From the sequence record MW822007.1: 64,000 bases of DNA; one strand, given 5' to 3'. A program made the position numbers and the translations under genes. Below, piece by piece: positions 35,082 to 39,321 of the stretch (positions are counted from its first letter, which is position 1; each line of letters starts with the position of its first letter). The notes below the pieces were generated by a model, which was not told where the DNA came from, ran no database searches, and worked only from the letters and a program-made list of their open reading frames with translations. The stretch is from Escherichia phage BF15.

Positions 35082-35360
35082 TCAAAATGTAATTTCTAAC
35101 CAATCACCATCACGCTGGTCACTATTGACTTTAAAGCTAAATCCTTCTTTTCTCAGCCAATCACCAATTTCTTCAGTAATCAATTTATCACGAGCAGTAC
35201 AATAATAACTAAAATATGTTTTACCTTGTTCAGCTGCTTTATTAGCAAGTTCCGAAAAATCTTTAATAAAACACTCTAGCTTAAACTGTTTGCTTTTAAG
35301 TGCTTTTTCGCGTAATTGATTAGCAAAAGATTCATTTTCATAAAGATCATACTGTTCCAT
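35082..35360 (-). CDS. hypothetical protein (24.2-like position)
   Basis: 92 aa ORF in the rnlB-hoc interval, codirectional. Confidence 0.6.
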   Translation of the reverse strand: MEQYDLYENESFANQLREKALKSKQFKLECFIKDFSELANKAAEQGKTYFSYYCTARDKLITEEIGDWLRKEGFSFKVNSDQRDGDWLEITF

Positions 35361-35562
35361 TTTTCACCTTTTTATTAATATGTCTTTTTCTATAGACAAC
35401 TTTTTCTCGAGTCTCAAATTTATTCTTAGCAGTCATAGCTCGAGCCCATAATACAGCCACTTCCTTTGCCTGTAAGTTCAATTCACGAGCAATTTCAATG
35501 AATGACTTTCCAGACTCATGGAGTGTAAACACCACAACCTCAGTTCTCATAATCAATCTCAT
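35347..35562 (-). CDS. hypothetical small protein with possible helix-turn-helix (24.3-like position)
   Basis: 71 aa ORF; segment SGKSFIEIARELNLQAKEVAVLW looks HTH-like; start may be an internal Met. Confidence 0.5.
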   Translation of the reverse strand: MRLIMRTEVVVFTLHESGKSFIEIARELNLQAKEVAVLWARAMTAKNKFETREKVVYRKRHINKKVKNGTV

Positions 35563-35629: not shown

Positions 35630-35647
35630 AAGGGGCCGAAGCCCCTG
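35630..35647 (-). terminator. terminator after hoc (minus strand)
   Basis: AGGGGC-TTCG-GCCCCT hairpin followed by T-rich stretch on the minus strand. Confidence 0.6.
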
Positions 35648-35650
35648 AGA

Positions 35651-37069
35651 TTATGGATAGGTATAGATGATACCAGTTTCTAAAGCAGTTTTATGAATGA
35701 TGTATCCATTACGCGATTCTTGAACATCAACTTCTGGATAGTCTTTCATCATCTTCTGAAGAGTGTAACGATGCAAGTAGTATTTACTATCTGGATCTTC
35801 AGTTTTCCAATCTTTACCTTCTTCAGTCATTTTTTGGATTTCATCCATAACCCACCAACCGCACCAGATATAAGCTGAGCTACGATGTGGAAGAGGATGA
35901 ACATAAGGTAATTCACCTTCTGGTTCCGGAGCAACTTTATCAGTCACTTGAACTTGACCTGTGGCTTTAACTGTTTTACTATCATAGTCAGTTGCTGTAA
36001 CGACAGCAGTAACTTCAATAGTTTGACTTCCAATAGATGAGGTATCAACAGTATATACGTTAGTTGACCCTTCCACAGGAGAAGAATCTTTCTTCCATGA
36101 GTAAGTAATTTGTGCTGCTTCAGGTGCGCCAGTAACATTAGCAGTAAATGTAGCCGAAGCATCTTGCTGAACATTAATAGAAGGAGGAGTCAATGTAACC
36201 TGTGGATTCATTGTCTTCTTATTAACTGTCAATGATACTTCATTGGAAGTAACTTCCTTTTCATTATAATTTTCTGCAGTTACTTGGGCTACGCATTTAA
36301 TTCTTTTTACTCCACTTGTAGTTGGAGTATAGTTAAATGTAGAGTTAGTTTCTCCACCAACTTGTGAATCATCTACATACCACTGATACGTGGCAGACGC
36401 TCCATCAGGTTGAGAAGCTAAGGCAGCAGTAAATTGAACCGGGGTTCCAATTACTCCAGCAGCAGGACTAGCAGGAGTTACTGCCAAGGTAGTTGTCTGT
36501 GTCTTTTTATTAACCGTTAATGATACTTCATTGGAAGTAACTTCCTTTGCATCATAATCTGTCGCGGTTACTTGAGCTACACACTTAATTGTTTTAACTC
36601 CGCTTGTGGAAGGAGTGTAATTGAATGTAGCAGAAGTTGCTTCGCCCACAGGAGAACCGTCAACGTACCATTGATACGTAGCAGATGCGCCTGATGGCTG
36701 CGAAGCTAAGGCAGCAGTAAATTCAACGGCTGTTCCGATTACTCCTTCTGGAGGACTATTAGGAGTTATAGCTAAGGTAGTTGTTTGTGTCTTATTTTGA
36801 ACTGTGATAGTTGTACTAATTTCAGCTGTTTCAGCTTCAGAATCAGGAATAGTATTTGTTGCAACTACCTTAATAGTCTTTTGACCAGCAGGTCCTTTTA
36901 ATACATAATCAAAAGTTGCTGCTGATCCTTCTTGGGGAGCATTATCTACGCTCCAAGCATATGTAATAGTTCCACCTCCAGTTTCACCACTGGGTGTAGC
37001 AGTAAACTGCTGAGTCTGATCTATAACTCCAGTAGGTGTTTTAGGAGTTATATCAACTGTAAAAGCCAT
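35651..37069 (-). CDS. hoc: Hoc highly immunogenic outer capsid protein, with one extra Ig-like domain
   Basis: 472 aa; N- and C-terminal sequence as T4 Hoc (C-terminal capsid-binding region ...YVHPLPHRSSAYIWCGWW...); internal tandem repeat of about 96 aa. Confidence 0.9.
   Translation of the reverse strand: MAFTVDITPKTPTGVIDQTQQFTATPSGETGGGTITYAWSVDNAPQEGSAATFDYVLKGPAGQKTIKVVATNTIPDSEAETAEISTTITVQNKTQTTTLAITPNSPPEGVIGTAVEFTAALASQPSGASATYQWYVDGSPVGEATSATFNYTPSTSGVKTIKCVAQVTATDYDAKEVTSNEVSLTVNKKTQTTTLAVTPASPAAGVIGTPVQFTAALASQPDGASATYQWYVDDSQVGGETNSTFNYTPTTSGVKRIKCVAQVTAENYNEKEVTSNEVSLTVNKKTMNPQVTLTPPSINVQQDASATFTANVTGAPEAAQITYSWKKDSSPVEGSTNVYTVDTSSIGSQTIEVTAVVTATDYDSKTVKATGQVQVTDKVAPEPEGELPYVHPLPHRSSAYIWCGWWVMDEIQKMTEEGKDWKTEDPDSKYYLHRYTLQKMMKDYPEVDVQESRNGYIIHKTALETGIIYTYP
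36213..36790 (-). repeat. intragenic tandem duplication (2 x about 288 bp) within hoc
   Basis: Two adjacent about 288-bp units roughly 85 percent identical by eye, encoding two near-identical about 96-aa Ig-like segments. Confidence 0.85.
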
Positions 37070-37078
37070 AAGTTATCC

Positions 37079-37759
37079 TTATTTTAATGTTACGAAAGAA
37101 GAGTTGCGTGTTTCACGAATTAAAACTGATCCGTCACGGTTAATGTAGTAAATTAAGCTAAATAAAGTTTGGTGTGCTGACGCGTGTTCAAAACTAGTTG
37201 GGTGAGATTTCCAATCCGGAGTTTCAGCAATCCATTGATAAATCCACCAAGGAACCGTACAGAATCCTGGATTTTTTCCAATCAGCTGAAGATTTGGACT
37301 AAAGTTTTCCGGAAGAGTAAATACAGACGGCTTTTCAGATTCAATAATCTCAGCTACAGCCTGTTCGAATTTTTCTTCAACAAAAGGAGTATCTTCAATC
37401 AAAACATCGGTATTTTCAGGAATTTTATCCGTTTCTACTACTTCAATTTTAATGTCAGATTTAACCGGAGAATCAATCAGAAGTGCTGCTTCTGGATTGA
37501 CTTCTTCATCGTCATATTTTAACCCTTCTGCGGCATCAGCAGCATCGATTAAGTCTTTAATAGATAACCCATCAGTCTCTGGCATAGGTTCACTAGCGAG
37601 CTTCTGGAGGGCTTCTTCAATATCAATAACGATATTATCAAAAGATTTATTCTTTTTGACCTTTATACCAAACTGTTCAGCATATTCAGCTAATTTAGCT
37701 TTAGCTTCTTTATTATCATCAAGAGCCTTCAGCTCTGCAATATAATCTTTATCTATCAT
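37079..37759 (-). CDS. inh: Inh, inhibitor of prohead protease
   Basis: 226 aa acidic protein between hoc and uvsW as in T4. Confidence 0.8.
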   Translation of the reverse strand: MIDKDYIAELKALDDNKEAKAKLAEYAEQFGIKVKKNKSFDNIVIDIEEALQKLASEPMPETDGLSIKDLIDAADAAEGLKYDDEEVNPEAALLIDSPVKSDIKIEVVETDKIPENTDVLIEDTPFVEEKFEQAVAEIIESEKPSVFTLPENFSPNLQLIGKNPGFCTVPWWIYQWIAETPDWKSHPTSFEHASAHQTLFSLIYYINRDGSVLIRETRNSSFVTLK

Positions 37760-37772
37760 AATATTTCCTCAG

Positions 37773-37780
37773 TATAAATA
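37773..37780 (+). promoter_or_regulatory. late promoter for uvsW
   Basis: Exact TATAAATA 29 nt upstream of ATG 37810. Confidence 0.7.
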
Positions 37781-37809
37781 TAGATATATTTATTACATGG
37801 TATTTAGAC

Positions 37810-39321
37810 ATGACTGACATTAAAGTACATTTTTATGATTTTAGTCACGTGAGAATTGATTGTGAAGAAAGTACATTTCATGAACTCCGTGATTTCTTTA
37901 GCTTTGAAGCTGATGGATATCGTTTTAATCCGAAATACAAATATGGTCACTGGGATGGACGAATCCGTCTATTAGATTATAATCGCCTTCTTCCATTCGG
38001 CTTAGTTGGGCAAATTAAAAAGTTCTGTGATAACTTTGGCTATAAAGCCTGGATTGACCCGCAAATTAACGAAAAAGAAGAATTATCAAGAAAAGATTTT
38101 GATGAATGGCTTTCTAAATTAGAAATCTATTCAGGAAATAAAAGAATTGAACCACACTGGTATCAAAAAGATGCAGTGTTCGAAGGATTAGTTAATCGTC
38201 GTAGAATTCTTAATCTTCCAACATCCGCAGGTAAATCTTTAATTCAAGCTTTGCTTGCACGTTATTATTTGGAAAATTATGAAGGTAAAATTCTTATCAT
38301 TGTTCCAACAACTGCTCTGACAACTCAGATGGCTGATGACTTTGTTGACTATCGTTTATTCAGTCATGCAATGATAAAGAAAATCGGCGGCGGAGCATCA
38401 AAAGATGATAAATATAAAAATGATGCACCGGTAATTGTTGGTACATGGCAAACTGTAGTAAAACAACCAAAAGAATGGTTCTCACAGTTTGGAATGATGA
38501 TGAATGATGAATGTCATCTTGCTACAGGAAAAAGTATTTCATCTATCATATCAGGTTTAAATAACTGCATGTTCAAATTTGGTCTATCAGGTTCATTACG
38601 TGATGGCAAAGCTAATATCATGCAGTATGTTGGAATGTTTGGTGAAATATTTAAGCCAGTAACGACTTCTAAATTGATGGAAGATGGACAAGTAACTGAG
38701 TTAAAAATTAATAGTATTTTTCTTCGCTATCCCGATGAGTTCACTACTAAATTAAAGGGAAAAACTTACCAAGAAGAAATAAAAATTATTACTGGGCTCA
38801 GTAAAAGAAATAAATGGATCGCTAAATTAGCTATTAAACTTGCGCAAAAAGATGAAAACGCTTTTGTCATGTTTAAGCATGTATCACATGGTAAAGCTAT
38901 TTTCGATTTAATTAAAAATGAATACGATAAAGTTTATTACGTATCAGGGGAAGTTGATACTGAAACACGCAACGTAATGAAAACCTTAGCTGAAAATGGT
39001 AAAGGAATAATTATAGTAGCTAGTTATGGTGTATTTTCTACTGGTATTTCAGTTAAAAATCTACATCACGTTGTTTTAGCGCATGGTGTTAAATCTAAAA
39101 TTATTGTATTGCAAACAATAGGTCGCGTATTACGTAAGCATGGTTCTAAAACAATCGCAACGGTCTGGGACCTCATAGATGACGCGGGCGTAGTTTCTAA
39201 ATCAAAAACATCTTCTAAAAAATACTCGCATTTAAACTATCTTTTAAAACATGGACTTGATCGTATTCAGCGTTATGCTGATGAGAAGTTTAATTATGTG
39301 ATGAAAGAGGTTAAACTTTGA
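37810..39321 (+). CDS. uvsW: UvsW DNA/RNA helicase
   Basis: 503 aa; helicase motifs PTSAGKS and DECH; length as T4 UvsW; TATAAATA upstream. Confidence 0.9.
   Translation: MTDIKVHFYDFSHVRIDCEESTFHELRDFFSFEADGYRFNPKYKYGHWDGRIRLLDYNRLLPFGLVGQIKKFCDNFGYKAWIDPQINEKEELSRKDFDEWLSKLEIYSGNKRIEPHWYQKDAVFEGLVNRRRILNLPTSAGKSLIQALLARYYLENYEGKILIIVPTTALTTQMADDFVDYRLFSHAMIKKIGGGASKDDKYKNDAPVIVGTWQTVVKQPKEWFSQFGMMMNDECHLATGKSISSIISGLNNCMFKFGLSGSLRDGKANIMQYVGMFGEIFKPVTTSKLMEDGQVTELKINSIFLRYPDEFTTKLKGKTYQEEIKIITGLSKRNKWIAKLAIKLAQKDENAFVMFKHVSHGKAIFDLIKNEYDKVYYVSGEVDTETRNVMKTLAENGKGIIIVASYGVFSTGISVKNLHHVVLAHGVKSKIIVLQTIGRVLRKHGSKTIATVWDLIDDAGVVSKSKTSSKKYSHLNYLLKHGLDRIQRYADEKFNYVMKEVKL

Follow-up and report, generated by a model that had tools for sequence, protein, structure and literature searches.

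Hoc, the head decoration protein of bacteriophage T4, is bound as one copy at the centre of each gp23* hexamer via its C-terminal domain and carries an Ig-like fibre of about 180 Å (PMC10385173). The residues Y293, H295, R300, W309, W310 and D313 and the loop E355-G359 of T4 Hoc form the contacts to gp23* (PMC10385173). Hoc mediates the adherence of the phage to mucus, and the exchange D246N in the third Ig-like domain alters the binding to fucosylated glycans (PMC9271167). The gene is variable within the T4 superfamily (PMC2839356), and Hoc homologues carry between 1 and 10 Ig-like domains, which vary in number as well as in sequence (Fokine et al. 2023, PMC10385173). With 10 Ig-like domains, the Hoc homologue of Serratia phage Muldoon shares with the protein described here the conserved C-terminal capsid anchor and an Ig string of variable length (PMC10385173). 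Whereas the homologues compared by Fokine et al. 2023 are distant and their Ig domains unrelated, the variation reported below concerns one to four copies of one 96-aa unit within a single genus.

The DNA analysed in this study, called the window in the following, comprises 64,000 nucleotides of Escherichia phage BF15 (MW822007.1). Its hoc gene occupies the same position as in T4 (Hoc of 376 aa; PDB 5VF3 chain Z, 8T1X), and domains 1 and 3 of T4 Hoc have close counterparts here (identities in Table 1), but a further unit of the domain-2 type, designated copy A, separates domain 1 from the T4-like domain 2 (copy B). The Hoc proteins of PP01, ime09, vB_EcoM_G2133 and ECO4 exhibit the same architecture as the window (472 aa, order D1-A-B-D3-Cterm), and their units are orthologous by position. 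Compared to the window, the four-Ig hoc alleles of Tequatrovirus are 89-98% identical at nucleotide level over the whole gene and deviate only by point differences and local mosaic patches; copy A ends with KEV in the window instead of LSV in G2133 and PP01.

Hoc of RB69 (Mosigvirus, 471 aa) comprises four Ig-like domains and the capsid-binding domain, too, and is collinear over the full length. Its fourth Ig domain, however, is of different origin. Domain 2 of RB69 is a co-orthologue of copies A and B together, and domain 3 is distinct from them; the four-domain state therefore arose independently in the two phage groups. The capsid-binding domain alone is nearly the same in both: over the last approximately 273 nt of hoc, RB69 (L011, 1801-2073) and the window (35651-35923) show 96.7% nucleotide identity. 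The Ig-like part of RB69 Hoc reaches only about 30-63% protein identity to the window, resulting in a sharp mosaic boundary at the junction of anchor and fibre. A hybrid Hoc of 567 aa from a metagenomic assembly (P0044) begins with domain 1 and a single domain-2 unit of the Tequatrovirus type and continues with three Ig domains near-identical to domains 2-4 of RB69, which suggests that Ig domains have been shuffled between genera on a shared anchor.

In our view, hoc of BF15 is very probably a common four-Ig allele, whose extra Ig unit derives from a duplication of domain 2 that took place within the Tequatrovirus lineage before the sampled phages diverged. In this course of events a 96-residue domain-2 unit would have been duplicated in tandem with its boundaries in the inter-domain linker (NK(K)T/QTTT, the slash marking the boundary). 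Both copies would then have been kept by purifying selection as intact Ig-like beta-sandwiches, with the amino-acid differences located mostly in loops, and the units would exchange segments by homologous or unequal recombination, leading to mosaic units.

The hoc gene of BF15 and its repeated unit

The hoc product of the window shows 100% identity to a database entry named "highly immunogenic outer capsid protein" of Escherichia phage BF15 (P0009) and matches T4 Hoc (chain 5vf3_Z of the PDB) in phmmer with an E value of 2.6e-217. The assignment of the gene to hoc, already made in the preliminary description, is well founded: only two residues of the C-terminal 96 aa differ from T4, all gp23*-contact residues of T4 are kept, including the loop with the sequence ESRNG, and the gene order rnlB-24.2-24.3-hoc-inh-uvsW is the same in the ORFs of the window and in the T4 annotation. 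The location of hoc between inh and 24.3/24.2/rnlB, in the region of the late head genes, also agrees with PP01, RB32 and RB69. D246 of T4 domain 3 is conserved as D342. A Shine-Dalgarno-like AAGGA precedes the ATG of hoc, and the site equivalent to the hairpin behind the gene (Table 1) is annotated as terminator in the close relative vB_EcoM_G2133. Two small ORFs on the opposite strand within hoc (35693-35878 and 35944-36174) were regarded as fortuitous.

Table 1. Location of hoc, its domains and the adjacent hairpin in the window
Feature	Position	Strand	Remarks
hoc	35651..37069	-	472 codons + stop; Hoc head decoration protein; ORF list, phmmer, synteny
Ig-like domain 1, aa 1-94	36788..37069	-	81% aa identity to T4 domain 1; predicted beta-sandwich, pLDDT ~85-94
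Repeat copy A, aa 95-190, extra Ig-like domain compared to T4	36500..36787	-	Pfam BiPBP_C, Ig_2 and PKD matches
Repeat copy B, aa 191-286	36212..36499	-	nearest counterpart of T4 domain 2; Pfam PKD at 197-267
Ig-like domain corresponding to T4 domain 3, aa 287-376	35942..36211	-	88% aa identity; Pfam Ig_3 and I-set at 289-374
C-terminal capsid-binding domain, aa 377-472	35654..35941	-	2 differences from T4 residues 281-376
Terminator-like GC-rich hairpin AGGGGC-TTCG-GCCCCT, then T-run	35631..35646	-	5 nt past hoc stop; consensus scan and sequence

According to the preliminary description, hoc contains at 36213-36790 a recent tandem duplication of an Ig-like domain, consisting of two highly similar units that encode near-identical segments and account for the length of 472 aa compared to 376 aa in T4; a self-comparison of the gene, a prediction of Ig-like folds and a comparison of Hoc lengths in related phages had been proposed as checks. 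A repeat search of the window detected two ungapped direct copies of 288 nt on the minus strand, arranged head to tail with a start-to-start spacing of 288 and an identity of 78%. Tandem Repeats Finder returned a period of 288 with 2.0 copies, 80% matches and a score of 745 for the span 36212-36793. The two copies lie at 36212-36499 and 36500-36787, so that the earlier coordinates were right within 1-3 nt. With 226 of 288 nucleotides identical (78.5%) and without a gap, the match between the copies is far beyond chance. At the protein level 77 of 96 residues (80%) are the same. The terms highly similar and near-identical were therefore an overstatement.

Both units lie in frame 0 of hoc. Their boundaries (TVQNKT/QTTT and TVNKKT/QTTT) are located within the inter-domain linker, which means that exactly one domain is repeated. 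The T4 gene (NC_000866; 1131 nt, 376 aa) carries a single unit, and the excess of 96 aa in BF15 thus equals exactly one unit. The greater length of the protein is explained, as had been supposed, by an extra Ig-like domain, namely one further domain-2 unit in tandem and in frame.

The Ig-like nature of each unit is supported by Pfam, AlphaFold2 and Foldseek. PKD passed its Pfam cut-off, with further matches to Ig_2, Ig_3 and I-set, covering both units and the following domain. The AlphaFold2 model of the protein (37 homologues) exhibits four beta-sandwich domains with a pLDDT mostly above 85 and a C-terminal domain of lower confidence. In the PDB, the best Foldseek matches were four-Ig strings such as those of Dscam1, Sidekick and ICAM-5 (E about 1e-13, probability 1.00). 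Copies A and B have an identical predicted secondary structure, and 15 of the 19 amino-acid differences between them are located outside predicted strands (Fisher p = 0.0015).

Unit number in related phages and probable exchange between units

A megablast search with the hoc gene matched 678 phage records, and 60 evenly spread records were sampled for the length of the gene. About 20 of these contain a hoc gene of 1419 nt aligned in one piece (including PP01, ime09, ECO4 and G2133), about 30 contain a gene of 1131 nt (including T4, T2 and RB32), and three carry longer arrays of units. Record spans were used for this purpose, since the 597 records covered to at least 80% in megablast are unusable as a count of two-unit genes: a gene with one unit yields two alignments, which are then merged. 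Sorted by length, the protein cluster representatives comprise 81 of 376 aa, 30 of 472 aa (about 444 member sequences) and 9 of 568 aa. Three units are present in hoc of UGKSEcP1 (568 aa; L006, 1001-2707) and four in that of slur08 (664 aa; L007, 1001-2995). The Hoc lengths in the relatives therefore fall into discrete classes of 376, 472, 568 and 664 aa, corresponding to 1, 2, 3 or 4 units. Judging from these records, the 472-aa form is a long-established and common four-Ig allele, which is carried by about a third of the sequenced T4-like coliphages.

Across genes with two and three units, the similarity follows position: first units share 88% with one another and second units 86%. A search for strictly position-diagnostic residues yielded only 3 of the 96 (positions 46, 49 and 50) that reliably separate first from second units. 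Because of the mosaicism of the units, a clean A/B phylogeny is not attainable. The single-unit genes carry either diagnostic set: among the 81 representatives, 24 were of the A type and 40 of the B type.

To describe the mosaic structure, units were painted at the 62 sites distinguishing window copies A and B, and the number of switches was compared with permutations. The painting revealed long A-type and B-type runs with far fewer switches than in the permutations (p <=0.005 for seven units). The unit of T4 is itself a mosaic. Its first 210 nt are of the B type (95.7% identity to copy B), whereas its last 78 nt are of the A type, with 88-92% identity to A-type units compared to 79.5% to B. 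A B-type head combined with an A-type tail was also found in the middle one of the three units of UGKSEcP1 (U2) and in U3 of slur08. Such units would be the expected product of an out-of-register crossover between two A-B arrays. As the source of the one-unit gene of T4, one unequal crossover inside an A-B array was rejected: it predicts an A-type head and a B-type tail, but T4 shows the reverse.

The repeat had also been regarded as recombinogenic and possibly unstable. The range of one to four units and the chimeric units lend some weak support to this on the evolutionary scale only, as distinct from the level of a phage stock. The longest perfect homology between the copies is, however, 30 nt. 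Recombination of the T4 type needs only short patches of homology below 50 bp, according to the statement in PMC2839356 that refers to Singer et al. 1982, and a rare unequal exchange is therefore plausible despite tracts of this size. As a tentative suggestion, the domain-2 unit may represent a copy-number-variable cassette array (1-4 units), whose units trade segments through gene conversion and unequal crossing-over, both inside one phage and between phages infecting the same cell. In this way the length of the fibre and the set of loops could be adjusted for attachment to mucus or cell surfaces, or the dominant capsid antigen could be varied.

The exchange among alleles bears on the origin of the array, too. 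Instead of diverging in place, diverged single-unit alleles of the A and B type might have been joined by unequal recombination at co-infection, in which case the two copies would have differed by about 20% from the start. The mosaic units point to frequent exchange among alleles, the homology requirement of T4-type recombination mentioned above would allow such a joining, and single-unit genes with either diagnostic set do exist: at nucleotide level, copy A matches the single unit of RB32 to 91%, and copy B matches the unit of T4 to 91% (93% at amino-acid level). These single-unit alleles could, however, equally be deletion products of arrays, and the positional similarity across two- and three-unit genes indicates that the array is old and inherited either way. 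We consider a joining of alleles rather unlikely compared to the in-place duplication within Tequatrovirus. The same data fit both, and in either case the array is old and has been inherited.

Divergence and age of the two copies

The two copies differ at 62 nucleotide positions, 39 of which are third codon positions. According to the method of Nei and Gojobori, dS between the copies is 0.91, dN 0.12 and dN/dS 0.13, with the age following only as a rough bound because a dS of about 0.9 is near saturation and the unit contains about 72 synonymous sites. These values indicate that both copies have long been under purifying selection. Diversifying selection between the copies was rejected at the level of the whole unit (dN/dS 0.13 here and 0.08-0.27 in other arrays), although the replacements are concentrated in loops.

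Within six hoc genes that contain several units, the units of one gene were separated by a dS of 0.5-1.7. For orthologues from nine Tequatroviruses, the neighbouring region of D3 and the C-terminal domain gave a median dS of 0.26, the largest value being 0.36. The paralogue value of 0.91 is thus at least 2.5 times the largest orthologous one, bearing in mind that the units are mosaic and that the divergence of A and B could have been raised or lowered by recombination with other alleles. Furthermore, the nucleotide identity of each window copy to the positionally equivalent unit of G2133 and PP01 is 93-99%, compared to only about 78% for the non-equivalent unit; for copy A, the identities to the first units of these phages are 94% and 93%, respectively. 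Since the paralogue dS exceeds the orthologous dS and the positional orthologues are closer than the other copy, the split between A and B is, on this evidence, older than the sampled diversity of the genus Tequatrovirus.

The comparison with RB69 sets the other limit. RB69 domain 2 is similar to copy A (52%) and copy B (54%) alike, and RB69 domain 3 reaches 38-41% to them. The duplication is thus later than the split from the RB69 lineage, or the copies have been partly homogenised since. The equal distance of RB69 domain 2 from A and B places the duplication within the Tequatrovirus lineage.

A recent duplication private to this phage or its immediate lineage, with two near-identical and unstable copies, is highly improbable. 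It would agree with the perfect 288-nt periodicity without indels and with the identical predicted secondary structure of both copies. Against it stand the 62 differences in 288 nt, the dS of 0.91 compared to at most 0.36 between orthologues, the longest identical tracts of only 30 and 22 nt, the closer similarity of the G2133 and PP01 orthologues to the matching copy, and the occurrence of the two-unit allele in about a third of the related records. The word recent in the earlier account is therefore not tenable. In 45 comparisons of adjacent units from cluster representatives the amino-acid identity did not exceed 85% (median 79%), and there was thus no fresh duplicate in any of the sampled lineages.

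A mis-assembly of a single unit as two can practically be dismissed: only the general risk of repeats in short-read assemblies speaks for it, whereas reads are unambiguous with 62 distinguishing positions, and the same architecture recurs in dozens of genomes assembled independently by different laboratories, including G2133, PP01, ime09, ECO4 and PYps55T. Because a surface domain of the Ig type is repeated here with scattered differences, the copies were also considered as the template and variable repeat of a diversity-generating retroelement. This was rejected, as the mismatches showed no adenine bias (A in copy A at 17 and in copy B at 22 of the 62 positions), their majority falls on third codon positions, and transitions and transversions were equally frequent (31 each). 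Among the genes neighbouring hoc in the ORF list of the window, there was no reverse transcriptase ORF.

Expected effect on the fibre and surrounding genes

Given the near-identity of its binding domain to that of T4, Hoc of BF15 is expected to be present as one copy at each gp23* hexamer centre and to be dispensable for growth. Taking the 18 nm of the four-domain T4 Hoc as a basis, the extra unit would lengthen the fibre by about one domain, i.e. roughly 4-5 nm. This extension is to be expected because the anchor and the T4-like domain 3 are both intact. Domain 1 and one of the domain-2 paralogues would be pushed further away from the capsid, and a second set of domain-2 loops would be added. 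The additional loops and length may change the reach of the protein or its avidity for surfaces such as glycans, with possible effects on adhesion, dispersion or antigenicity.

The gene, its product and the four-Ig form are already contained in public records, and a variable number of Ig domains in Hoc has been published before. In the literature searched we found no explicit account of a copy-number polymorphism of domain 2 in Tequatrovirus, only the general variation of the Ig number (PMC10385173) and the variability of hoc (PMC2839356). A recombining array of one to four domain-2 units at the population level is thus the only aspect that may be called mildly new. A Hoc protein of 472 aa is no marker of a recent or unstable rearrangement; the length of Hoc in T4-like coliphages moves in steps of one 96-aa unit. 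These steps are relevant to N-terminal Hoc fusions (phage display, vaccine scaffolds), to immunogenicity and to work on mucus adherence, and the natural alleles with 1, 2, 3 and 4 units could serve as a ready-made length series.

Some further observations concern the surroundings of hoc. The homing endonuclease gene segE, located between inh and uvsW in T4, is absent here, and inh (37079-37759, minus strand) and uvsW (37810-39321, plus strand) are separated only by a 50-nt spacer (37760-37809). The uvsW ORF comprises 503 aa compared to 587 aa for T4 in NC_000866.4, the annotation of which notes sequence discrepancies in this section. The homologue of gene 24.3 (35347-35562, minus strand) is an ORF of 71 aa, compared to 56 aa in T4 and 67 aa (204 nt) in PP01, G2133 and ime09; this difference in length is probably due to the choice of the start codon. 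The spacer between inh and uvsW contains the late-promoter motif TATAAATA at 37773-37780 on the plus strand. In the whole window this T4 late-promoter core was found 20 times compared to 9 expected from shuffles, mostly on the plus strand between 4 and 33 kb, a distribution consistent with a block of late structural genes.
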